Assembly (NCBI GenBank): GCA_964640635.1
Contig: CAZXFD010000001.1
Location: forward strand, 177,302 to 241,301
DNA length: 64,000 bases
Reading direction: 5' to 3'
Source of the DNA: an uncultured Gammaproteobacteria bacterium
Lineage (GTDB): Bacteria; Patescibacteriota; Patescibacteriia; UBA1558; S5-K13
Shown: piece by piece, positions 31,793-60,617 of the stretch
Layout of the letters: each line of letters opens with the position of its first letter
Numbering within the stretch: the stretch's first letter is position 1
The notes under the pieces: generated by a model
Seen by the model: only the letters and a program-made list of their open reading frames with translations
Told to the model about the DNA's origin: nothing
Database searches by the model: none
Program-made: the position numbers and the translations under genes

Positions 31793-31808
31793 TCTCGCAG
31801 TGGCGGGA
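31793..31808. repeat. GC-rich hairpin TCTCGC-agtg-GCGGGA, ending 8 nt before the ATG of the Cys-rich mini-protein gene
   Basis: Seen directly. Member of the CCGCCA-N-GGCGG hairpin family. Confidence 0.6.
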
Positions 31809-31816
31809 CAAAAAAA

Positions 31817-32111
31817 TATGCAAAATAAACACGTAGTATTTGTATCAGCAGCAGCACTTATTCTAACGATGGGAATAGTCGGCATTACAAATGCCTATTC
31901 ACTTTCAAAGAATAAAACAGTAAGCACAGAAACAGTAGAAAAATGTTCTTGTGGTTGCAACAAAGATAAGAAAGATTGCTCTTGCAATGGAACGGGTTCT
32001 TGTTTAAATAAACAAAATAAGAATAAAGGAGTTGGTGTTACATGTGGATCTAATAATGTTGAAAGTGGTGCTGGAGGTGCCAAAAAAAGTTGTGGATGCA
32101 AAACCCAATAA
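31817..32111 (+). CDS. Small secreted/membrane-anchored Cys-rich protein
   Basis: N-terminal hydrophobic segment then CSCGCNKDKKDCSCNGTGSC...CGSNN...CGCK. Confidence 0.5.
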
Positions 32112-32160
32112 TAAATTTTATAACGTTTTTAAAACCCAGTTTCTTGTAAGGGGCTGGGTT

Positions 32161-32850
32161 TTATAATATATCTATTTTTTGTATCGTTTTGTATTTGCCT
32201 ATTTTGATATCTCCTAGGTCTAGTTTTCCTATTTTTATTCTTACAAGACTCATTACCTCACATTCAATAGCTTGCATCATGAGTCTTATTTGTCTTTTTC
32301 TTCCTTCGTAAATAGTGATATGTAGTAGTGCTGTGTTTTTGTTTTGTTTTATAATTTTTACAATTGCAGGGAGTGTTTTTTTGCGCTCTATGATTATGCC
32401 GTTTTGTAATTGAGAAATTTTATTTCTATCAATAAATCCTTTAACAAAGACTTCATATGTTTTTGCAAGTTTATATTTTGGATGTGTCAGTTCATTTGCA
32501 AAATCTCCATCACTAGTAAGAATTAATAATCCTTCGGAATCATAGTCTAGTCGGCCAATATATTTTAGATCTTGAAGTTTTTCTGGTAATAATTCATATA
32601 TTGTTTTTCTACCAAATTCATCTATGCGACTGACGATATAATTTTTTGGTTTATTAAGTGCTATATAAATATTGGAAGTTGTGTTTTTCAAAATTTTACC
32701 ACCATATTTTACATAGTCATTTTCATTTATTTGAGTAGATAGATCTTGGCAAACTTTTCCATTTACAATAATTTCGCCATTTTTGATGAGCTCCTCAACG
32801 TTTCGGCGTGAACCAAGATTACATTTAGCTAAAAATTTATTTATTCTCAT
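32161..32850 (-). CDS. RsuA/RluB-family pseudouridine synthase (S4 domain plus catalytic domain)
   Basis: S4 N-terminus MRINKFLAKCNLGSRRNVEELI. Catalytic motif GRLDYDSEGLLILTSDG. Confidence 0.85.
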   Translation of the reverse strand: MRINKFLAKCNLGSRRNVEELIKNGEIIVNGKVCQDLSTQINENDYVKYGGKILKNTTSNIYIALNKPKNYIVSRIDEFGRKTIYELLPEKLQDLKYIGRLDYDSEGLLILTSDGDFANELTHPKYKLAKTYEVFVKGFIDRNKISQLQNGIIIERKKTLPAIVKIIKQNKNTALLHITIYEGRKRQIRLMMQAIECEVMSLVRIKIGKLDLGDIKIGKYKTIQKIDIL

Positions 32851-32916
32851 ATTTAGAATGATAGCATTTAATTGGGAAAAGAAAAACCGCCAAATCGAAT
32901 GCTTTGGCGGTATATA

Positions 32917-34065
32917 TTATTGAAACATTGGTTTTGTGCTTAAATCGGCACTAAACGGAGATGGACCTTTTTCTAGTAAAATAGCATTACTTGGATTGTC
33001 TGGATTGAAGTAGCTATTATGCCAGAAAATATATTTGAGCCAATTTTCTCCGCTTCCAAGGTCCATGAGGGCTTTTGCATAGTTTGCTTGCCCCACGTAA
33101 TTAGTAACTTTGCCTGAGAGCGTATTTGCATCCCATGCCCAGCCAACGTATCCATTTGTAAGAGGATATTTGACGCTAGGGCAGGATGTCTCTGCAATTA
33201 CAAATGGAACACCCGTTTGATTGTAAATCTGCTTGCAAAATCCAAATATTGGACTAAGAGCGGTTTTTAGGGAACTTAGGCTAGGGATTTCTTCATCTGA
33301 TAATCCTGGATACATTGTCATGCCAAGGATATCAAAGTTTGAGCAAAAGTTATTACTTACTTGATAGAATTCACAATCTGGGAATTGTTGTGAAGATCTA
33401 TTATATGCTCCACCATTAAAGTAATAACTCACTGATCCACTGTAAATAGTTTTTATGGAATCAACTAGTGCGTGCCAATAGGCATCTTTATCTGGTGTTG
33501 TGAGTAAGATGTTCTCTTGTCCAATATTGAGAATATCAATTTCCTGAAATTCACAAAATTGGGCATCGATTCTTATCTTATTCCAGAAGTTTGTGAAGAA
33601 ATATTGAGTATTTGATGGGTTAAAATTTCCCCTCCAAATTTCTCCATATCCATTATACCATCCAGACCCACGTCCAATAGGACATATTTCAATAGCATAT
33701 TGGACTTTCATCCCATAGCTTTTTGCCCTGGTAGTCATTTGGGCAAGCTCAATATATGAATAATTGCTCCATCCAGGATCTTCAGCGGGAAATTCTTCGT
33801 GAGGGTAATATGAGTTAATCCCGTCGAAATAGTAAACTTTGTAAAAAGTTACTTGTCCAATGCCACGACTAGCAAGTGAGTCTATTCTTGCTAAAATGTT
33901 TGGTAAGGCACCATTTTGATAGTAATCACCGTAGTATTTTCTATCAAAGTTTACTCCAAACTTATTTCTTCCATCTTGTGGATCAATATTTACGTCTACC
34001 GGATTTTTTGATGTGCATGACGTAAAAAATAGCAACAGTAATATGGCACAAAATATATTTCTCAT
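32917..34065 (-). CDS. Lipoprotein, putative TIM-barrel glycoside hydrolase-like
   Basis: Shine-Dalgarno GGGAGGAAAAA plus signal peptide with lipobox LLFFTSC. Aromatic-rich catalytic-domain-like sequence; family not resolved. Confidence 0.45.
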   Translation of the reverse strand: MRNIFCAILLLLFFTSCTSKNPVDVNIDPQDGRNKFGVNFDRKYYGDYYQNGALPNILARIDSLASRGIGQVTFYKVYYFDGINSYYPHEEFPAEDPGWSNYSYIELAQMTTRAKSYGMKVQYAIEICPIGRGSGWYNGYGEIWRGNFNPSNTQYFFTNFWNKIRIDAQFCEFQEIDILNIGQENILLTTPDKDAYWHALVDSIKTIYSGSVSYYFNGGAYNRSSQQFPDCEFYQVSNNFCSNFDILGMTMYPGLSDEEIPSLSSLKTALSPIFGFCKQIYNQTGVPFVIAETSCPSVKYPLTNGYVGWAWDANTLSGKVTNYVGQANYAKALMDLGSGENWLKYIFWHNSYFNPDNPSNAILLEKGPSPFSADLSTKPMFQ

Positions 34066-34362
34066 TTTTTCCTCCCAAATTGATTTTATTGTGAACATTG
34101 TATACTACAATATATTTGTAAAAAAAGCAAGTGATGTGATTATGTAGATAAATGGTTTATTTTTAGTTTTATTTTATTGGGTTTAGAGATTTTAGGCGTC
34201 AATAAAACATGTTTTTTACTTAACTTATCCACAGATAACGAGTGTTGAAAAAAGGTCTTTAGTGGTGTATAATATAAGTAAGGTGGTGAGAAGTGGAGAA
34301 TGTTGGGGATAACTATTTTCTCTCTACTAAACGTTAAACACTAAAAACTAAACTCTAATTCA

Positions 34363-34794
34363 ATGTTTATAGGTGAATACAATCACATAATAGATGAAAA
34401 AGGAAGATTGGCATTGCCAATTAAGTTTAGAACTGAATTTAAATCTGGGGCAGTTGTAACACGAGGACTCGACAACTGTCTTTTTGTTTTCACAAAAAAA
34501 TCATGGAACGAACTTGCTGATAAATTATCAAAGTTACCAATATCACAATCAAAGTCTCGTGCTTTTGCAAGACTTATGCTTGCTGGTGCAATGGACGTGA
34601 GGCTCGATAGTCAAGGAAGAATTATATTACCAGAATATTTAAGAGTTTTTTCAAAATTAAATAAAAAAGCAATTGTTGCGGGCGTCTTCAATAGACTAGA
34701 GATTTGGGATGAGAATTTGTGGAATATATATAAAACAGACGTTGAAAATAAATCAATTGAAATAGCAAATGAATTAGGTGATTTAGGAATCTAA
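34363..34794 (+). CDS. mraZ: Transcriptional regulator MraZ
   Basis: MFIGEYNHIIDEKGRLALPIKFR... with a duplicated MraZ half-domain. Confidence 0.9.
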   Translation: MFIGEYNHIIDEKGRLALPIKFRTEFKSGAVVTRGLDNCLFVFTKKSWNELADKLSKLPISQSKSRAFARLMLAGAMDVRLDSQGRIILPEYLRVFSKLNKKAIVAGVFNRLEIWDENLWNIYKTDVENKSIEIANELGDLGI

Positions 34795-34798
34795 AAAA

Positions 34799-35734
34799 AT
34801 GAAACCACATATACCAGTATTATTAAATGAAGTAATTGAAGGATTAAATTTAAAATCAAATCAGAATGTTATTGACGCAACTTTAGGAGGTGGGGGGCAT
34901 AGCGAGGTGATACTAGAGAAGATTGCACCGAGTGGCATAGTAATAGGATTTGATTTAGATAGCTCTGCAATTGAAATAGCAAAAAAAAGATTAGAGAAAT
35001 TTGGAGATAGAGTCATTTATATTAACGATAATTATCAAAATCTAAAAAAATATGAATCACAATTTGATTTTGGAATTAATGCAGTATTACTTGACCTTGG
35101 TCTCTCATTGTATCAATTGCAAGATAAAAGTAGAGGATTTTCTTTTTTAGATGAATCTGGTCTTGATATGAAATACAATAAAGACGAAGATGGCCCCGAT
35201 GCAAAGCATATTATTAATAATTATAAAGAAGAGGATCTTGTAAAAATTTTTATAGATTTTGGGGAAGAAAAGTTAGCAAAACAAATTACAAGAGAAATAA
35301 TTGCTTTTAGGAAAACAACAGAAATAAGTACTGGATCACAATTGTCAGAAATTATTACAAGAGTTTATAGAAGATTTTATAAGAAACATTCTAGAACCAA
35401 TCCAGCTACAAAAGTATTCCAGGCACTTAGAATTTATATAAATAAGGAATTTGAAAATATAGAAAATTTTTTACCAGATGCAATTAATATTTTAGAGCCA
35501 GGAGGAAGGTTCGTGGTTATTAGTTATCACTCTTTAGAGGATAGAATTATTAAAAATTATTTTAGAACAGAATCTAGAGATTGCATATGCCCTCTTGAAC
35601 TTCCAGAATGTCGTTGTAATCATAAAGCAAGTATAAAAATCATAAATAAAGGTGTTATTGTTCCGACAAGTGATGAAACAAAAGCTAATTCAGCATCAGA
35701 GAGTGCAAAAATGAGAATAGTAGAAAAAATTTAG
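34799..35734 (+). CDS. rsmH: 16S rRNA m4C1402 methyltransferase RsmH
   Basis: HIPVLLNEV...DATLGGGGHS SAM motif. Confidence 0.9.
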   Translation: MKPHIPVLLNEVIEGLNLKSNQNVIDATLGGGGHSEVILEKIAPSGIVIGFDLDSSAIEIAKKRLEKFGDRVIYINDNYQNLKKYESQFDFGINAVLLDLGLSLYQLQDKSRGFSFLDESGLDMKYNKDEDGPDAKHIINNYKEEDLVKIFIDFGEEKLAKQITREIIAFRKTTEISTGSQLSEIITRVYRRFYKKHSRTNPATKVFQALRIYINKEFENIENFLPDAINILEPGGRFVVISYHSLEDRIIKNYFRTESRDCICPLELPECRCNHKASIKIINKGVIVPTSDETKANSASESAKMRIVEKI

Positions 35735-35857
35735 TTATTTGCTGTCAGTTTATATAAAAAACAAAAGTTAAATGATTTGGGGAAAGGGGAAAAGGAAGTT
35801 TCAAAAAAAGCTTTATCCTTATCCCCACGTCATTTGGCAACAATAATTTAAATAATT

Positions 35858-36184
35858 ATGAAAACAAAAACAAAAAATAGAATGAAGTTTAATAAGAAAT
35901 TTATATTTATAAGTAATATTTGCTTGGTGTTTGTATTTTTTCTCTCCTTGTTTGTAAATTTGATAGCCTCAACTCAAGCAGCAACAGAAGGATTTGTAAT
36001 TAAGAATCTAAATTCAAAATTGGCAGATTTAAAAAATGATAATAAGGAATTAAATATTGTATCTGCTCAATTGCAATCAATCGCGAGAATTCAAGAAGTT
36101 TCAGCAAAGGAATTAGGTATGGTAGGAGATAAAGACATTAATTATTTTGTAACAAAACAAGAAGAAACGATTGCAGTAAGATAA
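35858..36184 (+). CDS. FtsL-like cell division protein
   Basis: Single TM helix plus coiled coil, in the mraZ-rsmH-[ftsL]-ftsI position. Confidence 0.5.
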   Translation: MKTKTKNRMKFNKKFIFISNICLVFVFFLSLFVNLIASTQAATEGFVIKNLNSKLADLKNDNKELNIVSAQLQSIARIQEVSAKELGMVGDKDINYFVTKQEETIAVR

Positions 36185-36197
36185 AATATAACTATAT

Positions 36198-39346: not shown

Positions 39347-40306
39347 ATGAAAAAGAAAATTTTGTTCGTCGTTGCGTTTTTGGTTTTTGCAGTTGTCATA
39401 TCAGGATGCTCTGTAAATCTCAAAAAAGCAAAAACTTTGAACCCAGAACAAGCTAAGACAAGAATTACTGAATTTATAAACAAGAACTTAATGAGTAATG
39501 GAGAGACTGTAGAAGTAAAAGATTTTGTATTGGAAAATGGTTTATACAAAATGTCAGTTGCCCTACCAAATAATCAAACAATAGATGCTTATATGACAAA
39601 AGATGGTAGCAAGTTTTTTCCACAAGTAATGGATTTGGCAAAAATTGAATCAGAAGCAGCTGGTGGAAGTACTGCTCAAGCACCTGTTGCAGAAGCTCCA
39701 AAAAGTGATAAACCAGTTGTAGAGGTTTTTGTTATGAGTCATTGTCCTTATGGAACTCAAATTGAAAAGGGTGTTATACCAGTTGCTGAAACACTAAAGA
39801 ATAAAATTGATTTTAGTATCAAATTTTGTGACTATGCAATGCACGGCGAAAAAGAATTGCAAGAACAATTGAAACAATATTGTATTTCAAAAGAACAGCC
39901 AGGAAAATATTTTGCATATCTTAAATGTTTCTTAAAGGCTGGGGACTCAGCTACATGTAGCAAAACAGCGGGTCTCGCATCAGTTGATTCATGTATTGCA
40001 AAATCAGATAAAGAGTTTTCTATCACAAAGAATTTCAATGATAAATCAACTTGGAAAGGTGATTATCCACCATTTTCCATTTTCGCAGCAGATAATACAA
40101 AATATGGAGTTCAAGGTTCCCCAACCCTTGTTATAAATGGTGCTCAAGTTGAGTCAGGTAGAGATTCGAAGAGTTTACTAGCAACTATCTGTACCGCTTT
40201 CAATAATGCTCCAGAAGAATGTTCTACAGAGTTATCAGGTGCTGCTCCATCAGCAGGATTTGGAGAAGGAACAACAAGTGGATCTACAGATGCTAGTTGT
40301 GAATAA
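39347..40306 (+). CDS. Lipoprotein with a thioredoxin/DsbA-like fold and a degenerate CPYG active site
   Basis: Lipobox VISGCS and VEVFVMSHCPYGTQ. Weak assignment. Confidence 0.4.
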   Translation: MKKKILFVVAFLVFAVVISGCSVNLKKAKTLNPEQAKTRITEFINKNLMSNGETVEVKDFVLENGLYKMSVALPNNQTIDAYMTKDGSKFFPQVMDLAKIESEAAGGSTAQAPVAEAPKSDKPVVEVFVMSHCPYGTQIEKGVIPVAETLKNKIDFSIKFCDYAMHGEKELQEQLKQYCISKEQPGKYFAYLKCFLKAGDSATCSKTAGLASVDSCIAKSDKEFSITKNFNDKSTWKGDYPPFSIFAADNTKYGVQGSPTLVINGAQVESGRDSKSLLATICTAFNNAPEECSTELSGAAPSAGFGEGTTSGSTDASCE

Positions 40307-40423
40307 TATTTATTGATTTTTTATAAAAAGCCGTTCTTTATTGGGCGGTTTTTTCTTTTACTTTATATGTGCTAAAATTTAAATAGGATTAGTATGTTCT
40401 AACCCTACTAACCAACTAATTTA

Positions 40424-40439
40424 CCCCGCCATGGCGGGG
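40424..40439. repeat. Perfect GC palindrome CCCCGCC-at-GGCGGGG, ending 12 nt before the desulforedoxin ATG
   Basis: Seen directly. The hairpin loop contains an ATG. Confidence 0.7.
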
Positions 40440-40451
40440 CAAGCTAACCAT

Positions 40452-40586
40452 ATGAACGTACAAAAAGAAGGAGAAAAGTATTATTGTGAAATTTGTGGAA
40501 ATGAAGTAACTGTAACAAAAGCTGGTGGAGGAGAGCTTATTTGTTGCGGAAAGCCCATGGAATTATTGAAGGAAGTGACTGAATAG
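40452..40586 (+). CDS. Desulforedoxin-like small metal-binding protein (44 aa), absent from the ORF track
   Basis: [39 protein letters not shown] has the CxxC...CC spacing and flanks of desulforedoxin and the Dfx N-domain. Confidence 0.65.
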
Positions 40587-40605
40587 AATTTAGTTGTTAG
40601 TGTTT

Positions 40606-40634
40606 TCCGCCAGAGGCGGATCAGCCTTCGGCTG
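40606..40634. repeat. Two adjacent GC hairpins (TCCGCC-aga-GGCGGA and CAGCC-ttcg-GCTG) downstream of the desulforedoxin gene
   Basis: Seen directly. Confidence 0.55.
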
Positions 40635-40647
40635 AAGAATTTAGAAA

Positions 40648-40680
40648 AAGAGTTGTTTTAAACGGCAACTCTTTTTTTCT
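40648..40680 (+). terminator. Intrinsic terminator
   Basis: AAGAGTTG-ttttaaacgg-CAACTCTT followed by TTTTTTTC. Confidence 0.7.
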
Positions 40681-40795
40681 TAATTTTTCTCGCGAAGCGG
40701 GATCCTGCAATAATTATAAAATATATGGAGACGTGGCCAGTTTCCTAATTTTCTAACCCTACTAACTTTCTAACCTCACTAACCCTCTAACCTCC

Positions 40796-40824
40796 TTGAC
40801 ACTATTTATTATTTTGCTATACTA
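40796..40824 (+). promoter_or_regulatory. Sigma-70-like promoter of the hrcA heat-shock operon (TTGACA, 16-17 nt spacer, TATACT)
   Basis: ttgacactatttattattttgcTATACT lies directly upstream of CIRCE. Confidence 0.55.
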
Positions 40825-40827
40825 AAT

Positions 40828-40854
40828 TTAGCACTCGTCTCTTATGAGTGCTAA
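40828..40854 (+). promoter_or_regulatory. CIRCE operator TTAGCACTC-N9-GAGTGCTAA overlapping the hrcA start codon
   Basis: Perfect match to the CIRCE consensus. The hrcA ATG lies inside the element. Confidence 0.9.
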
Positions 40855-41557
40855 GATACAAAAAAGTATGGAATTAAAAGACAAAGAATTACTTTTCAAA
40901 ATAATAGAAGAATATATTAGCTCTGCAAATCCTATTGGCTCTGCTTTTTTGGTTAAGAAAAAGAAAATGGATTGTTGCCCTGCAACAGTAAGAAATTCCA
41001 TGATGGACTTGGAAAAATTAGGATATTTGTATCAGCCTCATACATCAGCAGGAAGAATCCCAACCGAAAATGCTTATAAGCTTTATACACAAGAGCTAAA
41101 CAAAGACGAGAAGTTAAATTCAAAAATAGAAAAAAAGATAGAAAGCTTTTTAAACGAATTAAAAATAAAAGATAGAGTTACAAAATCAAAGGTTCTTGCA
41201 AAGATTATTGCAGAGGTAGCAAAGAATTCAGTTTTATTAGCTTTTTCAAAACACAATTATTATATTACTGGTTTTTCAAATATTTTGTCTCAAGTTGAGT
41301 TTGAAGATCCAGAAAAGTTAAGAGATTTAAGTCTTGTTTTTGATGAGCTTGAAAATATAGTTGAAAGAATGTTTAAGGGCGTTTCTGATAATGACGTTTT
41401 AATTGGCTCTGAGAATGAATTTTCTAAACATTTGTCTGTAATTGCGTCTCGAGCAAATTTAGTTCAAAATGAGGGCTTTTTGGCGATTCTAGGGCCTATG
41501 AGAATGAACTACAAGCAAAATTTAGGATTAATCAACTACTTTAAAAAAGCTTTATAA
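40844..41557 (+). CDS. hrcA: Heat-inducible transcription repressor HrcA (short form)
   Basis: N-terminal wHTH KELLFKIIEEYISSANPIGSAFL. Context is CIRCE plus grpE downstream. Confidence 0.75.
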   Translation: MSAKIQKSMELKDKELLFKIIEEYISSANPIGSAFLVKKKKMDCCPATVRNSMMDLEKLGYLYQPHTSAGRIPTENAYKLYTQELNKDEKLNSKIEKKIESFLNELKIKDRVTKSKVLAKIIAEVAKNSVLLAFSKHNYYITGFSNILSQVEFEDPEKLRDLSLVFDELENIVERMFKGVSDNDVLIGSENEFSKHLSVIASRANLVQNEGFLAILGPMRMNYKQNLGLINYFKKAL

Positions 41558-41584
41558 TTTTATAAACAATTTAATATAAAAATA

Positions 41585-42133
41585 ATGACAGAAGAAAAAG
41601 ATATACAAGAAGAAGATACTCAAGTAGAAGAGGCCGAAGAAGAAACATTAGACAAAGAATTCGGAGATGAAGTATTTTGCGCTAACTGTAAAAAATTAAA
41701 GGCACAATCAGATGAATATTTAAATAATTGGAAAAGATCCCAAGCTGATTATGAAAATTTGAAAAAACAAACAGAAAAAAGAATAAAAGATATTATAGAA
41801 TTTGGTAATGCTGAAATGATATTGGAATTTTTACCACTTTACAATTATTATTCTGTTGCGCTAAATCACATTCCTGAAAGTAGTAAAAAAGAATCTTGGT
41901 TTGAGGGTCTAAGTCATATTGACACTCTTTGGCAAGGATTTTTTGAAAAGTTTGGTATAAAGAAAATAAGCACAGTAGGAAATCAATTTGATCACAATAT
42001 TCATGACGCTGTTGATTTTGAAAGTGATAAGGATAAAAAAGATCATGAAGTGCTCAAGGAATTGCAAGCGGGTTATGAGCTTTCGGGGAAAGTAATCCAA
42101 CCAGCAAAAGTAATTGTTAATAAACTAGATTAA
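41585..42133 (+). CDS. grpE: Nucleotide exchange factor GrpE
   Basis: Acidic N-terminus, coiled coil and the GrpE C-terminal beta domain ...GYELSGKVIQPAKVIV. Confidence 0.85.
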   Translation: MTEEKDIQEEDTQVEEAEEETLDKEFGDEVFCANCKKLKAQSDEYLNNWKRSQADYENLKKQTEKRIKDIIEFGNAEMILEFLPLYNYYSVALNHIPESSKKESWFEGLSHIDTLWQGFFEKFGIKKISTVGNQFDHNIHDAVDFESDKDKKDHEVLKELQAGYELSGKVIQPAKVIVNKLD

Positions 42134-42141
42134 TATAATTA

Positions 42142-42190
42142 ACCCCGCCTTTGGCCCGCTTCGCAGTAGCGACAGCGAGGCAAGTCGGAA
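42142..42190 (+). promoter_or_regulatory. GC-rich structured leader upstream of hsp20, including its AAAGGAGA Shine-Dalgarno; candidate RNA thermometer or processing element
   Basis: ccccgcctttggcccgcttcgcagtagcgacagcgaggcaagtcgg includes the hairpin CGC-agta-GCG and a GCGAAGCGGG-family motif. Confidence 0.3.
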
Positions 42191-42206
42191 AAAGGAGATC
42201 AAAATT

Positions 42207-42617
42207 ATGAAATTAGTAAGATGGAATCCTTTTCTTGATGAGGGTGGTGACTGGGGAATGCTAAGTCCTTTTACAGGGGCAAATGCATTTGTGCCATCAC
42301 TTGATATTTATCAAGACAAAGACAACGTTATTGCAAAGGCAGCTTTGCCTGGAATTGACCCAGAAAATGTCAATATTTCTATTGAAAATGATATTTTGAC
42401 AATTGAAGGAACAATGAAAAAAGAATCAGAAGTTGATGAAAAAGATTATTACAGAAAAGAAATAAGTTCAGGATCATTTCACAGAAGTATGATTTTGCCA
42501 ACTAGCGTAAATGGTGATAAGGCAAAAGCAGAGTTTGCAAATGGAATACTAGAGATAACAATGCCAAAGAAAGAAGAAGTAAAACCAAAAACAGTTAAAA
42601 TTGAAATTAAGAAATAA
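42207..42617 (+). CDS. Hsp20/alpha-crystallin small heat shock protein
   Basis: Alpha-crystallin domain ...DNVIAKAALPGIDPENVNISIENDILTIEG...AEFANGILEITMPK. Confidence 0.9.
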   Translation: MKLVRWNPFLDEGGDWGMLSPFTGANAFVPSLDIYQDKDNVIAKAALPGIDPENVNISIENDILTIEGTMKKESEVDEKDYYRKEISSGSFHRSMILPTSVNGDKAKAEFANGILEITMPKKEEVKPKTVKIEIKK

Positions 42618-42624
42618 ACAAACC

Positions 42625-42656
42625 CGACCTCGTAGGTCCAAGGACCTTCGAGGTCG
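42625..42656 (+). repeat. Long near-perfect hairpin CGACCTCG-t-AGGTCC-aa-GGACCT-t-CGAGGTCG between hsp20 and the next gene
   Basis: Seen directly. About 14 bp of GC-rich stem with no U-tract. Confidence 0.6.
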
Positions 42657-42671
42657 TAAAGCTAAAACAAA

Positions 42672-42998
42672 ATGGACGGATCACTGATTTTCCCAAAAAA
42701 AATATTACAAAAATGCCCTGTCTGCGACGCAGATTATGATGCAAAAAAAGTGCAACTTTTAGATGCACAGGATTTGGATATATTATCTTATTTTAAGTGT
42801 GATAATTGCAAAAGTGGAATAGCTCTAAAGATTATGATTATGCCTCATGGCGTAGTAGGTCAGGCTATTGTCACGGATTTAGAACCGAGTGAAATATTAA
42901 ATTTCAAAAGCAAAAAGATACTAGTCAATAGCACAGATGTGTTGTATGTATATGATTTTTTTAAGAAAAAGAAGGATTTATTACGTGAAATTAAATAA
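42672..42998 (+). CDS. Hypothetical zinc-ribbon protein (CPVC...CDNC)
   Basis: Two CxxC pairs. No family recognised. Embedded in the heat-shock operon. Confidence 0.5.
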   Translation: MDGSLIFPKKILQKCPVCDADYDAKKVQLLDAQDLDILSYFKCDNCKSGIALKIMIMPHGVVGQAIVTDLEPSEILNFKSKKILVNSTDVLYVYDFFKKKKDLLREIK

Positions 42999-43008
42999 TT
43001 TAAAAATA

Positions 43009-43494
43009 ATGAAGAAAGATATTTATATAAAATTGATTGAATTTGGAAGAAAGAATTATTCGGGATTCAATTATGAAGATTTAAATAAATCTCAAGAATT
43101 AGATGATGATATTAAAGAAGTGGGGAATATTATGTTAAAAAATGCTTACAGTAATACATTTAAATCTATACATGGCGGTTATTCTAATTTAGAAACTATG
43201 TTTCTTGTTAAATCAAATAATGGCGGTTATATTGAAAATTATATTGATCCAAAAATTAAATATGTACTAAATTTAGATGCTGATTTTAAATATATAGATT
43301 ATCAAGAATTGAAACATGCAAGAAGAATGTCTAGAGAAGCAAAGAAAACTTCTGAGAAGTCTATAAAAATAGCTATTATTGCAATGATGTTATCTGTAAT
43401 TATTCCTATAATAGTTGCGCTTTTGTTTACACAAACCATAAAGGTAAACAGAAATCAGTTTAATGAAATAAAAACATTGATAAACAATAAATAA
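43009..43494 (+). CDS. Hypothetical protein with a C-terminal TM anchor
   Basis: Start set at MKKDIY. The longer track ORF overlaps the previous gene. Confidence 0.45.
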   Translation: MKKDIYIKLIEFGRKNYSGFNYEDLNKSQELDDDIKEVGNIMLKNAYSNTFKSIHGGYSNLETMFLVKSNNGGYIENYIDPKIKYVLNLDADFKYIDYQELKHARRMSREAKKTSEKSIKIAIIAMMLSVIIPIIVALLFTQTIKVNRNQFNEIKTLINNK

Positions 43495-43512
43495 TATAAT
43501 TTATAAAAGTAT

Positions 43513-44355
43513 ATGCCAAACAAAGAATTTTTAGAAGAATATCCTCTTTATAAAAGTTTTGAAACAGGAATCGTTCACGATAAAAGATACACTAGTGATA
43601 TTATAGATTTTACTAAAATTCCAAAACCAGCAATTCATATGTATTGCTCAACTTGTGGTTCTGGACAGACGTTTAATATGATAAATGATTATCATGAAAA
43701 TGAAAGTAATCAGGGCGTTATTGTTTTTGATAAGGTTGTTAGAGCGCTATATCTATGTTCGGCATGTGAGGATAACAAAAGATTTTTTATTATAAGATTT
43801 TTGTCAGAAAAGGTGAATGATTATCAATATAAAGTTATTGTTATGAAGGTTGGACAATATCCAGCGTGGGAAATTAAGATGAATAAAAATTTAAAGAAAA
43901 CTTTAGGAGAGCACTCTGGTTATTATAATAAGGGATTAATATGTGAATCTCAGAATTATGGCATAGGTGCTTATGCTTATTTTAGAAGAATAACAGAAGA
44001 TATAATTGATGAATTATTAGAATCAATACATGGTTTAATTGATGGAGAAGAGAAACAAGAAGAATATAAAAAAGCATTAGAGAATATACGCCAAGAAAAA
44101 AGAACATCTGAAAAAATTGATGTTGTAAAAGACTTATTACCAAATAGTTTAATAATAGATGGTATTAATCCATTAAAAGTTTTGCACGACGCTTTAAGTG
44201 TTGGACTGCATGGTAAAACAGACGAGGATTGTATGGAGCTTTCAGTAACTATTAGAGATAGTTTAGTTTATTTAATCAATCAAATTCTATCAAATAAACA
44301 AGGAAAAGAGCAATATAAAAAAAGCTTAGCTAAGCTTTCTAAAAAAATTAAATAA
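43513..44355 (+). CDS. Hypothetical protein with an N-terminal Cys4 zinc-finger (CSTCGSG...CSACEDN) and an alpha-helical C-terminal domain
   Basis: No confident family. The C-terminus is loosely reminiscent of DUF4145-type helical domains. Confidence 0.45.
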   Translation: MPNKEFLEEYPLYKSFETGIVHDKRYTSDIIDFTKIPKPAIHMYCSTCGSGQTFNMINDYHENESNQGVIVFDKVVRALYLCSACEDNKRFFIIRFLSEKVNDYQYKVIVMKVGQYPAWEIKMNKNLKKTLGEHSGYYNKGLICESQNYGIGAYAYFRRITEDIIDELLESIHGLIDGEEKQEEYKKALENIRQEKRTSEKIDVVKDLLPNSLIIDGINPLKVLHDALSVGLHGKTDEDCMELSVTIRDSLVYLINQILSNKQGKEQYKKSLAKLSKKIK

Positions 44356-44391
44356 TTTAAATATAAATTAAAATAATAATTCAGAAAGGAA

Positions 44392-44409
44392 CCCACGCCT
44401 GTGGCGGGG
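44392..44409. repeat. GC hairpin CCCACGCC-tgt-GGCGGGG, ending 11 nt before the dnaK ATG
   Basis: Seen directly. One mismatch in the stem. Confidence 0.6.
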
Positions 44410-44420
44410 TAAATAAAATT

Positions 44421-46352
44421 ATGAGCAAAATATTAGGAATTGACTTAGGAACAACAAACAGTGCAATGAGTATTATTGAGGGTGGAAAGCCAGTTATCTT
44501 GGAAAACAAAGAAGGCGCAAGAACTACTCCATCAATAATCGCAGTTGCAAAATCAGGTGAACGTCTTGTAGGACTTCTTGCAAAACGTCAAGCAGTTATT
44601 AACCCTGACAACACTTTATTTTCTATCAAACGTCTTATTGGTAGAAGATTTGATGACAAAGAAGTTCAAAGCGATATTAAGACATTGCCTTATAAAATCA
44701 AACAAGCTGGTGAGGGTGTAAAAATTACTCTTGGAGACAAGGATTATTCACCTCAGGAAATCTCAGCAATGATTTTACAAAAATTAAAAGCAGATGCAGA
44801 AGAAAAACTAGGTGAAAAGATAGAAGAAGCTGTTATTACGGTTCCAGCATACTTTGATGACGCACAACGTCAAGCAACAAAAGATGCAGGAGAAATCGCA
44901 GGACTAAAGGTCCGAAGAATTATCAATGAACCTACTGCAGCAGCTTTTGCATATGGTTTTGACAAGAACAAAGACCAAAAAATCGTTGTATACGATTTAG
45001 GCGGTGGAACATTTGATATTTCAGTACTTGATATTGGTTATGACGCAGAAACAAAGCAATCTACCGTAGAAGTAAAGTCCACTAATGGTGATACTCACTT
45101 AGGTGGAGATGACTTTGACCAAAAGATTATTCACTTTATTATTGATGAATTCAAAAAAGACCAAGGAATTGATCTTGCAAATGACAAAACCGCTTTACAA
45201 CGCTTGAAGGAGTCTGCAGAAAAGGCAAAGATAGAGCTTTCTACTTCAATGGAAACTGAAATTAATCAACCATTTATTACAACAGACGCTAGTGGTCCAA
45301 AGCACTTGGTCATGAAAATGACAAGAGCAAAATTAGAAGAACTTGTTGGAGAATTAGTTGATAAAACAATGATTCCTTGCCAAAAGGCATTAGACGATGC
45401 AGGACTTAAAAAAGAAGATATAAATGAAGTAGTGCTTGTCGGTGGTATGACTCGTATGCCATATGTCCAAAAGAAGGTAGAAGAATTCTTTGGTAAAAAG
45501 CCAAATATTACAGTAAATCCAGATGAAGTTGTAGCAATGGGTGCAGCAATTCAAGCAGGACAATTTGAAGGGTCTATGGGTAGTAAAGAAGTATTGCTTC
45601 TTGATATCACTCCACTTACTCTTGGAATTGAAACTCTTGGGGGTGTTATGACTCCACTTATTGAAAAAAATACAACTATCCCTACAGCAAAGAGCCAAAT
45701 TTTCTCAACCGCAGCAGATAGTCAGACTTCTGTAGAAATTCATATTCTTCAAGGTGAAAGACAATTAGCGCAGGATAATAAGACACTTGGCAGATTTATC
45801 TTATCAGGTATTCCACCAGCACCTCGTGGTATTCCTCAAGTTGAAGTTAGCTTTGATATTGATGCAAACGGAATTTTGAATGTAAAAGCAGTAGACAAGG
45901 CAACAGGAACTGAGCAGAAAATTACCATCACAGCATCAAGTGGTCTTTCAAAAGAAGAAATAGAAAAAATGAAGCAAGAAGCAGAAGCTCATGCTGAAGA
46001 AGATAAGAAAAAGAAAGAAGAAATAGAAGTAAACAATAATGCAGAAAGTATCATTTATAATACTGAAAAAATGCTAAAAGACGCTAGCGGAAAAGTTGGT
46101 GCTGACGTAATTACAAAAGTAGAAGACAAACTTAAGGAATTAAAAGATGCAAAAACTGCAAACAATGTTGAAGATATGAAAAAGAAAATGGAAGAAATGA
46201 ATGAAGTTGTTCAAGAAATTGGAAAAGCAATGTATGCTCAGCAACAACAGGCTCAACCAAATGGAGATGCGCAAGCAAACCCAGAAACTTCAGAAGAGCC
46301 AAAAAAAGACGAGCCAGTTGAAGCAGAATTTGAAGATGTTAAAAAGGAATAA
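44421..46352 (+). CDS. dnaK: Chaperone DnaK (Hsp70)
   Basis: [17 protein letters not shown] and the Glu/Lys/Ala-rich C-terminal lid. Confidence 0.95.
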
Positions 46353-46741: not shown

Positions 46742-46786
46742 ATCAAAATCGCTAAATACTAAAAACTAAACTCTAAACACTAATAA

Positions 46787-52157: not shown

Positions 52158-52221
52158 TTTATCCTCCTTATTGGATATATTTATACTATAGCATATCTTA
52201 ATATAAATGTCAAATAATATA

Positions 52222-52258
52222 CCAACCCGGGGTTGACTATTCGGCAACCCCGGGTTGG
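52222..52258. repeat. Perfect 14-bp inverted repeat (CCAACCCGGGGTTG, 9-nt spacer, CAACCCCGGGTTGG), each arm itself palindromic, in the divergent intergenic region
   Basis: Seen directly. Strongly GC-rich. Can fold as one long hairpin or two small ones. Confidence 0.6.
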
Positions 52259-52361
52259 GGTTTCAAGGTGTAACCTTTTCCCATTAAACCCGTCTTACTA
52301 TATAGAGAAACATATCTCTACAAAACAAAAACAAAAAAATAAGCCTAAAAACAACAATATT

Positions 52362-53435
52362 ATGAAAGACACTGACATATTAAAAAATTTAAAAGACTTC
52401 AAAGACATAGAGCCGGATGAAAAGTGGTACCACGTCAACCGCTCTATTTTGTTAAACATTATAGATCGTGATTCTGTAACAAAGGAATCGTTTAGCCTAA
52501 AGAGAGTATTTTTTGGGTTTTTGCTTGTATTTAGAAACATGATGCCAAACTGGAAAGTAGCTCTATCAAGCTTTGTAGCAATAGTAATGGTCGGTGGTAG
52601 CGTATTTGGAGCAAGCGCATCTATTCCAGGACAAGCACTTTACCCAGTAAAGCTTGCTACAGAAAAAATTGAAATCAGTCTTGCAAAGGACGAAGTATCA
52701 GAAACCAATATTAGACTCAAGCATATTGATAATAGAATAGCAGAAATTAACAAACTTTCTTCAGATGAGGCTCAAAAGCACATAGAAAGCATTACAGCAA
52801 ATATTACCGAAAATCTAAACAATGTTCAAAACTCACTCAAAACAATAGAAAAAAGTGATTCTGTCAACAATAAAGACATTGTTAAGCTAGCTCAACTAGT
52901 CGACGAGAAAACAATCAATGCTACAAAAGCAATAAAAGGAATTAGTTCTGACTCTGTTTCAGCTACCGAAATTGCAACGCTAGGAAATCAAGTTAGCCAA
53001 AAAGCTCTTGAAGTCATCATAGATAAGACTGGTGAGGAATCAAAAGAAGTCATTGAAAACAGTCTAAACAACAAAATTCAATTACAAGAAGAAAGAGCAA
53101 CTGCTGTTACAGCAAAGATAAATGAAGTTACAAAAGCAGATGATTCTAAGGTAATTGTTAAATCTACAAGTACAGACCCAAATATTGAATTTAATATAGA
53201 TCAATTAAAGAAAATAGATCCAACGGAAATTGACAAATATTTGAAATCAGCAAAAGAGCTTATATCCCTCGGTAATTACAAAGGAGCTCTTATAGAACTA
53301 GAAAAAGCACAATTTTCTCTAGACTTATCAGATAAAGCACTAGATTCTGTTATAAAAGATGGATATAAAAAAGATATTGAAAATATAGAAAAAAATATAA
53401 AAGAAATAGAAAACAAAGACACCTTGAAAAATTAA
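52362..53435 (+). CDS. Membrane protein with a DUF5667-like coiled-coil ectodomain (anti-sigma-factor-like)
   Basis: Cytoplasmic N-terminus, TM helix, then LYPVKLATEKIEISLAKDEV...IRLKHIDNRIAEI. Located beside an ECF sigma gene. Start set at MKDTDIL. Confidence 0.5.
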   Translation: MKDTDILKNLKDFKDIEPDEKWYHVNRSILLNIIDRDSVTKESFSLKRVFFGFLLVFRNMMPNWKVALSSFVAIVMVGGSVFGASASIPGQALYPVKLATEKIEISLAKDEVSETNIRLKHIDNRIAEINKLSSDEAQKHIESITANITENLNNVQNSLKTIEKSDSVNNKDIVKLAQLVDEKTINATKAIKGISSDSVSATEIATLGNQVSQKALEVIIDKTGEESKEVIENSLNNKIQLQEERATAVTAKINEVTKADDSKVIVKSTSTDPNIEFNIDQLKKIDPTEIDKYLKSAKELISLGNYKGALIELEKAQFSLDLSDKALDSVIKDGYKKDIENIEKNIKEIENKDTLKN

Positions 53436-53487
53436 TTTAATTTAAATAAGATATCAAAATTTATCTTGATTTGTGGAAGCTTTATTA

Positions 53488-53755
53488 TTGTAGATTGTGT
53501 TAAGGGCCTATAATATAGACATTTAGCACAATCTATAATGACATTGCGCGAGCAAGTCAGGATGGATTTCTCTCGCACCTTATTAAGAGGTGGGGGGATA
53601 AGTTCTCTATTACGGGTTGTGTTTTATCTTATTGGCCCATTGGTCCTGGTTGATAGCAAGATCGATGCCGCAAGGCAATCACCTCGAGTCAATGAATAAA
53701 GGTAATAAGACAAAGGCAATTTAAGTAATATTGAATTATAAAAAGGAAAAAAAAT
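53488..53755 (+). promoter_or_regulatory. Candidate promoter (TTGTAG...TATAAT) plus a roughly 230-nt GC-rich structured 5' leader of the giant surface-protein gene
   Basis: 9-bp stem TAGATTGTG/CACAATCTA around the -10 region. Stems GCGAG/CTCGC and CACCT/AGGTG. GNRA hairpin TGCC-gcaa-GGCA. The GC content is atypical for intergenic DNA here. Confidence 0.35.
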
Positions 53756-57322: not shown

Positions 57323-57365
57323 TTAATTAGTTATTGACTTAGTGAAAAAGATTTAGTTCTTTTTA

Positions 57366-57397
57366 CCCCCCACCTTATTGGTGGGGGGTTTTGATTT
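57366..57397 (+). terminator. Strong intrinsic terminator
   Basis: CCCCCCACC-ttatt-GGTGGGGGG followed by TTTTGATTT. Confidence 0.85.
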
Positions 57398-57448
57398 AAG
57401 CTTAAAAATTTGCTATATTTATACTTATTAATATATAAAATAAGACTT

Positions 57449-58210
57449 ATGAAATTAAAACAATCAATCAAAGGAGTTATTACAATTTTAGTTTGCATTA
57501 TAATTATTGTAGGAGCTATATTTTTCTACAATGTTTATAAAAACAAGAAAACACAAAATGCGCAACAACCAAGTATATCAATGTCTGAAAAGGATTTTTC
57601 AAATGATTTTGAAAACATACTCAGAAAAGAGATTTCTGAAACTATTCCACCACAAGAAATAAAAGATAGGTTTAATAAGGAAATTGAAATATCAAAGAAG
57701 GCTATAGAAAACAATAAGCCATCTCAAGAAAAATTTAAAGATTTGAGCGAAGATTATGTAATAGTGGGTTTTAATTATCAAATTTTAGGTCAATATAAAG
57801 AAGCAGAAGATTGGTATAAAAAGACTATTGAGAAATGGCCAGATAATTACAAAGCTATTGTAAACTTAGGAGATTTGTATATTTTGATGGGTCAGTATAG
57901 AGAATCTGCAAGTTATTTTTATACTGCTATAAAGGCATATCCAGAAACAGATATTGCATATATGAAATTAGCAGATTTATATAATAAATATGCTAAAAAT
58001 AATAAGGATAATGCAAGTATTATATACGAAGAAGGTGCTAGGGTAGCAAATTATAAGAGAGCTTTATTAAAGGCGTATGCTGGATATTTAGAATTATATA
58101 AAAAAGATTATGAAAAAGCCGTTTCAATATGGAGAGAATATGAGAAGGTGTCTGGAGATAAAGTTGAACAAGAAATTTTAAGACTTCAAGAGGCAATAGA
58201 GTTAAAATAA
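57449..58210 (+). CDS. Membrane-anchored TPR-repeat protein
   Basis: N-terminal TM helix, then TPR-like helices with W/Y/A periodicity (EAEDWYKKTIEKWPDNYKAIVNLGDLY...). Confidence 0.55.
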   Translation: MKLKQSIKGVITILVCIIIIVGAIFFYNVYKNKKTQNAQQPSISMSEKDFSNDFENILRKEISETIPPQEIKDRFNKEIEISKKAIENNKPSQEKFKDLSEDYVIVGFNYQILGQYKEAEDWYKKTIEKWPDNYKAIVNLGDLYILMGQYRESASYFYTAIKAYPETDIAYMKLADLYNKYAKNNKDNASIIYEEGARVANYKRALLKAYAGYLELYKKDYEKAVSIWREYEKVSGDKVEQEILRLQEAIELK

Positions 58211-58211
58211 T

Positions 58212-60401
58212 ATGCTAGAAAATACATTAAAGAAAATAAATTTTTGGGGAATAATTTTAATAATATTTTTGCCATTATTTACAAGTACAGCATTTATATT
58301 CCCATTTATGGCACTCAAGAATCTTCTTTTTAGATTTATTGTTTTACTTATTTCTATTTTTTTTGTTTGGTATTCTATAGGTATAAAAAAAATTAGGTTT
58401 GGTTGGATTTTTTTGAGTTTTATTATATTTTTTATTATTCAAACATTCTCATCTATTTTTGGTGTTAATTTTTATTATAGTTTGTTTGGTAATTTAGAAA
58501 GAATGGATGGATTATTTCATATTTTTTTATTACTTATATTTTTATTAATTCTTATTAATATATTGAAAACGAAGCAAGATTGGCTAAAAGTATTTAGATC
58601 TCTATCTATTTCTACGATATTAATGAGTTTATTTTATTTCCTGGGTTATTATGGAATCAGATTTTCTATTATATCTCTAGATAATTCAGGAACAATTGGA
58701 AACACTGCATTTCTTGGTGTGTATATGGTTTTAGTATTGTTTTTTCTTGCAATAGCTTATGTATATGATGACAGCAAGAAATGGAAGTATTTTTATATTA
58801 TTAATATAATCTTAGGTTTAATAATAGTTTTCATGAATGCTTCAAGAGGATCTATTTTGGGATTAATATTTGGAATATTTATTTTCTTATTATTTTTAAG
58901 TTTTAAATCAAAAAAAATAATAAAGCACATAACGATTATTTTTTTATCTGCAGTTATTTTGTTTGGGGTATTGGTTTTTAGCAATAGAGATAAATCTTGG
59001 GTACAGAATACAAAATTTTTAAATAGATTCGCAAGTATCGCTTCAAAAGATTATAGTTCTCAAGGAAGGTTATTGATTTGGGAAGTTGGATATAAGGCAT
59101 TTTTAGATAGACCAGTTTTTGGATATGGGCCTGAAAATATTTTGTATGGTGTTAATAAATATTTTAATCCACAAATTACAGAAAACTGGTTTGATAGAAT
59201 GCATAATTTTGTATTTGATTATTTAGATTCGTCTGGAATTTTGGGATTGCTGAGTTATTTATTTATGATTTTAGTAACATCTATATATATATTAAAGTAT
59301 TATAAAAAAGATTATTTGTTGGGCTCAGCTTTGTTTGGATTTTTAGCATCTTATTTGGTAATGAATTTTTTTGTTTTTGATACACTTAATTCTTGGATTC
59401 TTGTAATAATGTTTTTAGCCCTTGTTAGTTTTCTATATAAAAATAATAGTAAAATAGATCAGGAAAAAATAATTCCTAAATTGTTAGTTTCAAATGTGAA
59501 TATGGTATTGGGTTTTTCAACAATAGCATCAATATTGTTTATGTATATTTTTGTATTTTTACCAGCACAGGCAAACTCATGTGCTTTATTATCTCTTAAA
59601 GAACTTGGTAAAAATCCAGAAAAAAGCTTAGAATATATAGAAAAAGGAATTGCTTTAAATACCTTTGGAAATCGTGAATTATCAATGCAGTTATCAAAGG
59701 CTTATGTAGAAAATTTGGCCGACAGAAGTGATGTAACTCTTGACATACAAAAACGATTCTTTGAAAGTGCTGAAAAAAATTTACTAGAAATTATTAAAAA
59801 AGACCCAGAGGATGTTAGAACTAGAATGATTTTAGCAGAGCTTTATTTGAAATATTCAGCGCGTAATTCTTTTTATATTGACGAGGCCATTAAGTTAATT
59901 GAAACAACTATTCAATATTCTCCAACAAGAGTTGAGTCATATCCTATGTTGGCAGAGGCCTATCTTATGAAAAGTGACCCCAATAAAGCAATAGATTATT
60001 TAGAAAAAGCATTAGAGATAAATAATACAAGAAGTCAAGATTATCTAAATATAATTAATGTTGCATCGCAACTTAAAAGAAAAGATATAATGGATAAATA
60101 TGTTAATAAATTTTATGAAGGTTTTTATAATATTGATTCAGAGAGTTATAGAAAAATAGGTCAATATTATTTTATGGCAGGATATTTGAGTGATGCAGAG
60201 AGAATTTTAATAGAAAAAGCAATTCCATCAGATCCTGATAATATGAAAAGTTATGTATCACTTGCATCTATTTATGAATATGCAAAACAGTATGATAAAG
60301 CGATTAGCTATTTGGAGGGTGTTATAATAGATCATCCAGACTGGTCTATCACGCTACAAGATTATATTAAGTATTTACAAGACTTAAAAAATAAAAAATA
60401 A
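58212..60401 (+). CDS. O-antigen ligase/Wzy_C-like polytopic membrane protein with a C-terminal TPR domain
   Basis: About 10 TM helices, a large loop with NASRGSILG, then TPR repeats. Paralog of the protein at 60629. Confidence 0.65.
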   Translation: MLENTLKKINFWGIILIIFLPLFTSTAFIFPFMALKNLLFRFIVLLISIFFVWYSIGIKKIRFGWIFLSFIIFFIIQTFSSIFGVNFYYSLFGNLERMDGLFHIFLLLIFLLILINILKTKQDWLKVFRSLSISTILMSLFYFLGYYGIRFSIISLDNSGTIGNTAFLGVYMVLVLFFLAIAYVYDDSKKWKYFYIINIILGLIIVFMNASRGSILGLIFGIFIFLLFLSFKSKKIIKHITIIFLSAVILFGVLVFSNRDKSWVQNTKFLNRFASIASKDYSSQGRLLIWEVGYKAFLDRPVFGYGPENILYGVNKYFNPQITENWFDRMHNFVFDYLDSSGILGLLSYLFMILVTSIYILKYYKKDYLLGSALFGFLASYLVMNFFVFDTLNSWILVIMFLALVSFLYKNNSKIDQEKIIPKLLVSNVNMVLGFSTIASILFMYIFVFLPAQANSCALLSLKELGKNPEKSLEYIEKGIALNTFGNRELSMQLSKAYVENLADRSDVTLDIQKRFFESAEKNLLEIIKKDPEDVRTRMILAELYLKYSARNSFYIDEAIKLIETTIQYSPTRVESYPMLAEAYLMKSDPNKAIDYLEKALEINNTRSQDYLNIINVASQLKRKDIMDKYVNKFYEGFYNIDSESYRKIGQYYFMAGYLSDAERILIEKAIPSDPDNMKSYVSLASIYEYAKQYDKAISYLEGVIIDHPDWSITLQDYIKYLQDLKNKK

Positions 60402-60404
60402 TTT

Positions 60405-60596
60405 ATGTTAGACTCAAATGATATATATAATATAACAGAATCTATTGATAGAAAAATAGAGCAAAGACTTGAAGATTTCCAAGAAAAAGTTATTTCAAAA
60501 GATGATTTATATAAATTAAAAGAAGATATAATGTATAGCGTAAAAGAGGAGTTGAATAATTTTTATGATAAGGTAAAAGAACTTTTAAATAAATAA
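60405..60596 (+). CDS. Small coiled-coil protein (63 aa)
   Basis: Amphipathic helix. N-terminal theme (MLDSNDIYNI..IDRKIEQRL) is shared with the small proteins at 62741 and 63235. Confidence 0.4.
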   Translation: MLDSNDIYNITESIDRKIEQRLEDFQEKVISKDDLYKLKEDIMYSVKEELNNFYDKVKELLNK

Positions 60597-60600
60597 AATA

Positions 60601-60617
60601 ATCTCGTCAGACGAGAT
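60601..60617. repeat. Perfect palindrome ATCTCGTC-a-GACGAGAT, ending 11 nt before the ATG at 60629
   Basis: Seen directly. Confidence 0.7.

Follow-up and report, generated by a model that had tools for sequence, protein, structure and literature searches.

The 64-kb stretch of contig CAZXFD010000001.1 that we analyzed (the window) carries a dispersed family of short GC-rich hairpins, here named Family B, which from their sequences we are inclined to read as young mobile mini-palindromes that resemble repetitive extragenic palindromes (REPs), in an AT-rich genome whose translation is largely independent of the Shine-Dalgarno (SD) motif. Family B is separate from a second palindromic repeat of the same genome, Family A, which accompanies a transposase gene. 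Among the roles that an earlier note on this DNA had listed for the hairpins, that of a mobile mini-palindrome leaning to 5′ leaders fits best, in view of three things: relatives differ in their insertions, copies that are almost identical occur in unrelated contexts, and the genome has palindromic repeats that accompany a gene resembling that of a REP-associated tyrosine transposase (RAYT).

The window has a GC content of 30%, its GC skew is positive along its whole length, and almost all of its genes lie on the + strand. Metagenome contigs contain a DnaK sequence identical to that of the window, and by a GrpE-based scan the organism belongs to the Patescibacteria, near Candidatus Staskawiczbacteria. 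We compared it with the relatives L002, L003 and L004 (GrpE identity 91%, 71% and 64%, respectively), and with additional relatives, L069–L071, that were obtained via NUDIX homologs. Our coverage of the genome itself is ~77 kb, i.e., the window plus 9.4 kb upstream and 3.5 kb downstream (locus L074 is the upstream extension); the extension is limited because contigs break at transposase repeats. Hairpins were assessed by reading of the sequence, by folding energy (kcal/mol) with its z-score, by motif counts against chance expectation, and by a scan for terminators.

The existence of GC-rich stem-loops far above chance, as the note had stated, was borne out by folding and by counting: CCCGCCNNGGCGGG, allowing ≤2 mismatches, has five matches in the window against 0.03 expected, and CCGCC-N1-12-GGCGG has four against 0.00; the near-identical copies lie in unrelated contexts. 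Family B comprises 11 folding copies of 15–18 nucleotides (nt) per 64 kb (Table 1), nine of them outside genes, with the consensus (AATTN)ATCCCGCC-NN-GGCGGGAT, a loop or spacer of 3 to 4 nt, and RNA folding energies of −7 to −17 kcal/mol. Of the looser relatives that had been proposed, 1431 (here 1423–1439), 18200 and 40688 belong to the family, whereas 23627 gives no hairpin (−3.1 kcal/mol, z = +0.33) and the structure at 42152, in the hsp20 leader, is a distinct and larger one with a clear AAGGAG after it. A hairpin-like GTCGCGCTCCTTAGCGGGAC at 8345 in murD contains a stem mismatch and reads VALLSG, which we take to resemble a conserved Mur-ligase motif; we treat it as a probable chance occurrence.

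Table 1. Family B hairpins and the Family A doublet in the window (ORF, open reading frame; aa, amino acids)
Element	Sequence	Position	Strand	Context and remarks
Family B-like	GTCCTGCTAAGCGGGAC	1423–1439	+	28 nt past tRNA-Thr; degenerate Family A unit 1411–1422 just before
Family B-like	CTCGCCAAGGGTGGG, two G·U pairs	18200–18214	+	25 nt past secA stop, 69 nt before next start
Family B	ATCCCGCCAGGGCGGGAT	19820–19837	+	In N-terminal coding part of cytidylyltransferase-like ORF 19794–20276, reads SSRQGGI; −11.6 kcal/mol
Family B	ATCCCGTCATGGCGGGAT, one G·U pair	20283–20300	+	35-nt gap, 6 nt past stop, 11 nt before ATG 20312; AAGCTAA 3′
Family B	ATCCCGCCAAGGCGGGAT	20881–20898	+	In frame in NUDIX gene 20668–21111, codes IPPRRD; −17.1 kcal/mol, z = −5.9
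Family B	TCTCGCAGTGGCGGGA, one G·U pair	31793–31808	+	4 nt past stop 31788, 9 nt before ATG 31818 (Cys-rich 97-aa ORF)
Family B	CCCCGCCATGGCGGGG	40424–40439	+	Desulforedoxin leader, 12 nt before ATG 40452; AAGCTAA 3′
Family B-like	TCCGCCAGAGGCGGA	40606–40620	+	19 nt past desulforedoxin stop; abutting hairpin 40621–40635, then canonical terminator 40643–40678
Family B	TCTCGCGAAGCGGGA, one G·U pair	40688–40702	+	Between desulforedoxin terminator and hrcA promoter/CIRCE (40796–40854); no start codon near
Family A	Inverted doublet of GACCT-NNN-AGGTC (REPIN-like)	42625–42656	+	7 nt past hsp20 stop, 15 nt before zinc-ribbon ATG; AAGCTAA 3′
Family B variant	CCCACGCCTGTGGCGGGG, bulged A	44392–44409	+	Directly after AAAGGAA, 11 nt before dnaK ATG
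Family B-like	ATCTCGTCAGACGAGAT, two stem pairs changed on both sides relative to consensus	60601–60617	+	11 nt before ATG 60629 (Wzy_C/TPR gene)

All four of the perfect ATCCCG copies lie in one orientation with AATTN immediately 5′, AATT having a frequency of about 1.5–2% of positions. In the imperfect copies, read on the + strand, there are seven G·U (G·T) pairs and zero A·C; these G·U pairs, together with the changes on both sides of the stem at 60601, point to a structure formed by a single strand and not to a site in duplex DNA. A count of covariation is uninformative, because the six 18-nt copies are too alike: 95% of cells pair, and a change on both sides occurs in only one pair.

Comparison with orthologous loci shows that Family B copies have inserted at unrelated sites in this lineage, namely in leaders, in trailers, in spacers and, in frame, in two coding sequences. 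Seven sites can be compared; relatives are without the hairpin at six (19820, 20283, 20881, 40424, 40606 and 40688), and 44392 is mixed. The 20283 copy is missing from the orthologous spacers of L070 and L071. L003 and L004 are without 40424 and keep the same desulforedoxin start (ATGAAYGTA); the whole 40606 segment is missing in both, as is 40688, with the hrcA promoter kept.

Two copies are translated: 20881 lies inside the NUDIX coding sequence, and after 19820 the following ATG (19843) is out of frame and the cytidylyltransferase ORF reads through the hairpin. The NUDIX protein has exactly six extra residues (IPPRRD) that are missing from all 10 of its closest homologs (52–76% identity), and a codon-level comparison with L070 and L071 places the 18-nt palindrome between the codons TTT and GAA TCA. 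At 19820, where L070 has no hairpin, its sequence is shorter by 21 nt (7 codons) and the frame is kept. Between this hairpin and the conserved GAYDILHDGH motif there are zero canonical in-frame starts, and the Pfam domain begins at residue 20; L071 has an ATG start upstream of the corresponding stretch, which is therefore coding. The cytidylyltransferase-like gene (19782–19845) offers no in-frame ATG: its first canonical start is the TTG at 19794, and the ATG of L071 is ATA here, at 19782.

The dnaK leader of the closest relative, L002, reads AAGAAAGGA|CAATAAATATG, and the 18-nt hairpin of the window sits at that junction. The hsp20 leaders of L002 and L003 carry the dnaK-type hairpin: thus L002, at 87–89% nucleotide identity, has a hairpin in its hsp20 leader and not in its dnaK leader, and the window has the reverse, so that leaders turn over quickly even at this level of identity. 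The hsp20 leader of the window (42144–42190) instead holds a 45-nt GC-rich structure (−21.7 kcal/mol) right before a strong AAGGAG, whereas that of L002 and L003 consists of AAAGGA and a bulged CCCACGCC hairpin.

Another element of the argument is Family A. The hairpin at 42625 had been described as a longer relative of the short ones, an assignment that we revise: it belongs to a separate repeat family, of which it is an inverted doublet, GACCTCGTAGGTC-caag-GACCTTCGAGGTC, that folds as one hairpin (−23.7 kcal/mol, z = −6.1). L002 and L003 have a Family A doublet in the same spacer, with different stem bases. The RAYT-like gene lies 8.8 kb upstream of the window on the minus strand (L074 54–641) and encodes 195 residues. 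The protein is a Y1 transposase by PF01797 (E = 1.6e-8); its top NCBIfam match is REP_Tyr_transpos, at 69.6 bits under the curated cut-off of 80, and its match to TnpArep (PDB: 4ER8) is weak. Its HUH (NHFH) and Tyr (YINLNP) motifs are conserved across Patescibacteria homologs, and some homologs are named RayT by the Joint Genome Institute. Family A doublets flank the gene (L074 19–51 and 733–761) and a third lies inside it (407–440); a 72% identical homolog (L200) is flanked by a GACCT-NNN-AGGTC unit too. In several homologs, a variable loop just past the HUH motif contains TSQV, encoded by the unit ACCTCGCAGGT, and at L074 407–440 this unit is doubled, adding four residues. The in-frame position of a Family A unit within the transposase gene indicates that in-frame palindrome insertion occurs in this lineage. 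In the ~77 kb, Family A has one copy away from the transposase (42625) and a degenerate unit at 1411; of the two families, we take Family B to be the younger and the more abundant.

We hypothesize that Family B has spread in the form of single-stranded DNA hairpins that would be cut and pasted by a Y1 transposase, inserting in one orientation beside AT-rich, AATT-like sites. A + strand with an excess of G over C is of the leading-strand type, and so corresponds to the lagging-strand template, where Y1 transposases act; the + strand is here also the sense strand, so selection at the RNA level and at the DNA level are inseparable. Selection would purge copies whose presence disturbs the ~9 nt nearest to the start codon, a stretch often with CUAA at −8, and survivors would accumulate just 5′ of that stretch, just past stops, or in tolerant protein loops. 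Purifying selection is the simplest account of the 9–12 nt spacing between hairpin and start codon, leader function or co-option being possible. Transcribed copies would give stable RNA hairpins, some of which may be co-opted for transcript-end protection or cistron insulation.

Several observations weigh against mobility. Family B elements are shorter (15–18 nt) than classical REPs and occur as singlets only, with neither a definable target duplication nor a firm element boundary, and no Family B copy adjoins the RAYT-like gene in L074, the only such gene seen in the ~77 kb covered and one that Family A flanks. The spacing of 9, 11, 11, 11 and 12 nt before the start codon is tighter than uniform placement would give (five seen against ~1.2 expected, a rough and post hoc estimate). 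Three hairpins are followed directly by an identical AAGCTAA, and the window contains no other intergenic AAGCTAA. Furthermore, the dnaK hairpin is kept in the distant L004 as TCCACGCCTTTGGCGGGA, the bulged form being the same and the closing C-G having become U-A, a compensatory change. The tight spacing, the retention at dnaK and the shared AAGCTAA hint at function over passive tolerance. Finally, the asymmetry in favor of G·U could partly stem from a leading-strand C-to-T bias, bearing in mind that the GC skew is positive throughout.

Some of these same observations favor a different explanation, which we entertain tentatively: that the hairpins, as stable stems that end ~11 nt before the AUG and often have AAGCUAA or CUAA at −8 after them, are selected RNA modules of the 5′ leader, serving as an SD-independent initiation aid, as a standby or insulating boundary, or as protection of the 5′ end after processing, and that their similarity reflects selection or recombination of leader cassettes instead of transposition. 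In addition to the AAGCTAA association, it can draw on the six hairpins (five of Family B, one of Family A) that end 9–15 nt before an ATG at a variable distance (4 to 117 nt) from the upstream stop, on the recurrence of the dnaK/hsp20 hairpin in four genomes with one compensatory pair, on G·U pairs being confined to the sense strand, and on the GC hairpins of their own that relatives have 12–16 nt before ATGs. On the other hand, two of the four best-preserved copies lie within coding sequences, orthologs use the same start codon without a hairpin, intergenic gaps of 29–35 nt force start proximity on two copies, and the sample is small, with a distance range that was picked post hoc. The claim that the hairpins precede an ATG by 10–15 nt holds only in part: five of the 11 do so at 9–12 nt, four (40606, 40688, 1423 and 18200) are 69–223 nt away from the next start codon, and two are in coding sequence.

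The hairpins had further been proposed to stand in place of an SD. A GGAG/GAGG core is found between −20 and −4 in only 4 of 67 genes (7 of 67 when AGGA and AAGG are included), so the motif is absent from 60 of the 67 (about 90%); across Parcubacteria, a survey of ribosomes of the Candidate Phyla Radiation (CPR) found the anti-SD motif in only 48% (PMC9297842). The absence of an SD is thus the rule in this genome and does not set the hairpin-bearing genes apart: it is true of them, as had been noted, and equally true of ~60 of the 67. With SD-less genes normal, orthologs sharing the starts without the hairpin, and two copies translated, the idea of a substitute for the SD finds no support.

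Hairpins in leaders have precedents: one lies between SD and start codon in genes 38 and 25 of phage T4, and stem-loops stabilize the 5′ ends of ompA and aprE. The dnaK leader of the window is similar, with AAAGGAA, a stable hairpin, 11 nt and the AUG; folding would be expected to bring the purine tract nearer to the start. In contrast to these precedents, the purine tract is present only at the dnaK and hsp20 copies, most genes use no SD, and in L002 an identical purine tract lies 8 nt from the dnaK ATG without a hairpin.

CTAA is the top enriched 4-mer between −18 and −4 (in 13 genes, where 2.6 would be expected) and peaks sharply at −8, which also speaks for a leader module. A CTAA peak at −8/−7 is seen in close relatives as well, and some AT-rich leaders are made of tandem units of the CTAAAC/CTAACC type (1551–1585, 24349–24384, 34327–34362, 40399–40420, 40753–40795 and 46750–46786). 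CTAA at −8 could serve as an SD-independent start signal. The 3′ end of 16S rRNA was sought in the fetched loci with an anti-CUAA sequence in mind, and no 16S was found there. It is also conceivable, if doubtful, that a stable hairpin plus either AAGCUAA or CUAA at −8 makes up a start-site module that is transferable and SD-independent, and that mobile palindromes were domesticated to supply it; such a module would account for the 9–12 nt spacing and for one hairpin type recurring in the dnaK/hsp20 leaders of four genomes.

We consider it improbable that the hairpins are U-tract-less terminators or attenuators, or hairpins that protect the 3′ end of the upstream gene, even though three copies (1423, 18200 and 40606) sit 19–28 nt past a tRNA or gene end, three (20283, 31793 and 60601) start 4–6 nt past a stop, and REPs elsewhere are mainly downstream of genes (PMC3733652). 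The copies resemble intrinsic terminators in having a GC-rich stem with a tetraloop, and the identical 18-mer is a terminator stem in many other genomes. Yet they have no U-tract on the sense strand, their 3′ flanks being A-rich, and in agreement with the earlier note no copy appears on the + strand in the output of the terminator scan or is followed there by a T-tract. Genuine terminators composed of A-tract, hairpin and T-tract occur elsewhere in the window (e.g., at 24817, 29670, 40325 and 40643), and one of canonical form already follows 40606. Several copies, moreover, are in gaps of 29–35 nt, presumably within operons, and two are inside genes.

That the palindromes are duplex-DNA sites for a dimeric regulator seems very improbable: there is a palindromic core, and 40688 lies ~95 nt upstream of the hrcA promoter, but the loop or spacer varies between 3 and 4 nt, stem changes preserve pairing and not sequence (the G·U pairs, the double changes at 60601, the closing pair in L004), and copies are found inside genes and past stop codons. 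Independent, convergent hairpins without common origin are hardly credible, in spite of the same 18-mer being an ordinary terminator stem in many unrelated genomes, given the motif count in the window (five against 0.03 expected), the AATTN flanks and loops that copies have in common, and the exact in-frame insertion of some copies relative to homologs.

Searches for known elements and for outside copies gave the following. Viral contigs searched for ATCCCGCCNNGGCGGGAT yielded 42 loci, mostly in GC-rich genomes, in which this sequence forms an ordinary terminator stem. A metagenome scan for ATCCCGYMANGGCGGGAT yielded at least 120 loci; the matches listed all had ≥34% GC, lay in varied contexts and included none from this organism. 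Ordinary terminators dominated both scans. An Rfam scan at gathering thresholds reported tRNA only, and E-value scans of 40300–44450 and 18100–21200 reported nothing at E ≤ 1 (ROSE, other thermometers, leaders). An RNA thermometer was dropped by inference, with no dedicated test, the purine tract being outside the stem and the stems stable. Integron attC sites were likewise dropped by inference: the hairpins are far shorter, and no integrase was seen among genes with Pfam families, no dedicated search having been made. The ORF at 52233–53435, considered as a TnpB candidate, has DUF5667 and no transposase match.

Other Staskawiczbacteria genomes have their own families of 18–19 nt GC palindromes (L014 1555–1572 and 2194–2211; L021 4511–4528; L005 1104–1122; L007 1237–1255). 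One such family is AATAACTT-GGTTGYC-NNNN-GRCAACC, and another, GCGTAGCCaagGGCTACGC, directly abuts an ATG. The occurrence of these GC mini-hairpins 0–16 nt before ATGs in other loci suggests that the phenomenon may be clade-wide. An arrangement GATTGCTTC-[GC hairpin]-TCGCAATGAC recurs on several unrelated contigs (L005 ~9905–9940, L018 ~9910–9950, L107 and L145) and in the dnaK leaders of L007 and L010, and sometimes encloses the ATCCCGCCAAGGCGGGAT stem.

We also made observations on the loci around the hairpins. The hrcA-grpE-hsp20 promoter (within 40796–40854) has a near-consensus TTGACA, 16 nt, and TATACT with TG; the CIRCE (controlling inverted repeat of chaperone expression) TTAGCACTC-N9-GAGTGCTAA lies 3′ of it, and both elements are conserved in L003 as well as in L004. 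Two genes, of 169 and 280 aa and of unknown function (42985–44355), separate the zinc-ribbon gene from dnaK; both are missing in L003, where dnaK directly follows the zinc-ribbon gene, and L002 is masked there. At the start of the DUF5667 gene is a very stable GC palindrome, CAACCCGGGGTTG...CAACCCCGGGTTGG (52223–52258; −27 kcal/mol), and past the gene a CACCTTATTAAGAGGTGGGGGG hairpin (53564–53599) that resembles the terminator stem at 57365–57389. The same-strand array of small genes at 18284–22327 (DUF1653, several NUDIX, cytidylyltransferase, a 119-aa ORF and MFS) varies in content and order relative to L070 and L071.

How closely do these repeats follow known systems? Rickettsia palindromic elements (RPEs) are palindromic repeats of roughly 100–150 bp whose insertion into protein-coding genes, in a reduced and AT-rich genome, keeps the reading frame; Family B shares the in-frame insertion of a palindrome, at 18 bp, in another lineage and with no sequence relation. 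The GC clusters of yeast mitochondria are mobile, GC-rich palindromic mini-elements of about 30–60 bp, mainly intergenic in a very AT-rich genome; they are organellar and longer, and their mobilization is different or unknown, so that we draw an analogy only. The nearest parallel is with the REPs, REPINs (REP doublets forming hairpins) and RAYTs of E. coli and Pseudomonas: short GC-rich palindromes, dispersed, mostly intergenic and lineage-specific. The Family A inverted doublet folds into one long hairpin as a REPIN does, and the Y1/HUH transposase gene is flanked by Family A repeats as a RAYT gene would be; the host, a Patescibacterium of 30% GC, is unlike those of REP/RAYT systems. REPs inside genes are known elsewhere (PMC3733652). 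REPs are described as 20–40 bp long, one end bearing an unpaired tag, GTAG or CGTC (PMC3733652); Family B is 15–18 nt, no GTAG/CGTC tag was found in it, and the four perfect copies have 5′ AATTN instead. We therefore say that Family B works like a REP and not that it is one, because no enzyme is linked to it and it departs from REPs in two respects, namely length and tag, and a flanking RAYT.

A full-text literature search found no paper that pairs RAYT or REPIN with Patescibacteria. Whatever the role of the hairpins, the peak of CUAA at −8 is relevant to start-codon choice in these organisms, the genome being poor in SD motifs. If the reading as mobile mini-palindromes is true, palindromic repeats of the REP/RAYT type reach the reduced, AT-rich genomes of the CPR, and a very small (18 nt) variant, able to enter proteins in frame and 5′ leaders, is added to them. 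Such elements would then drive fast leader turnover and small protein insertions in genomes supposed to be streamlined, and would cause contig breaks and miscalled gene starts in metagenome-assembled genomes.

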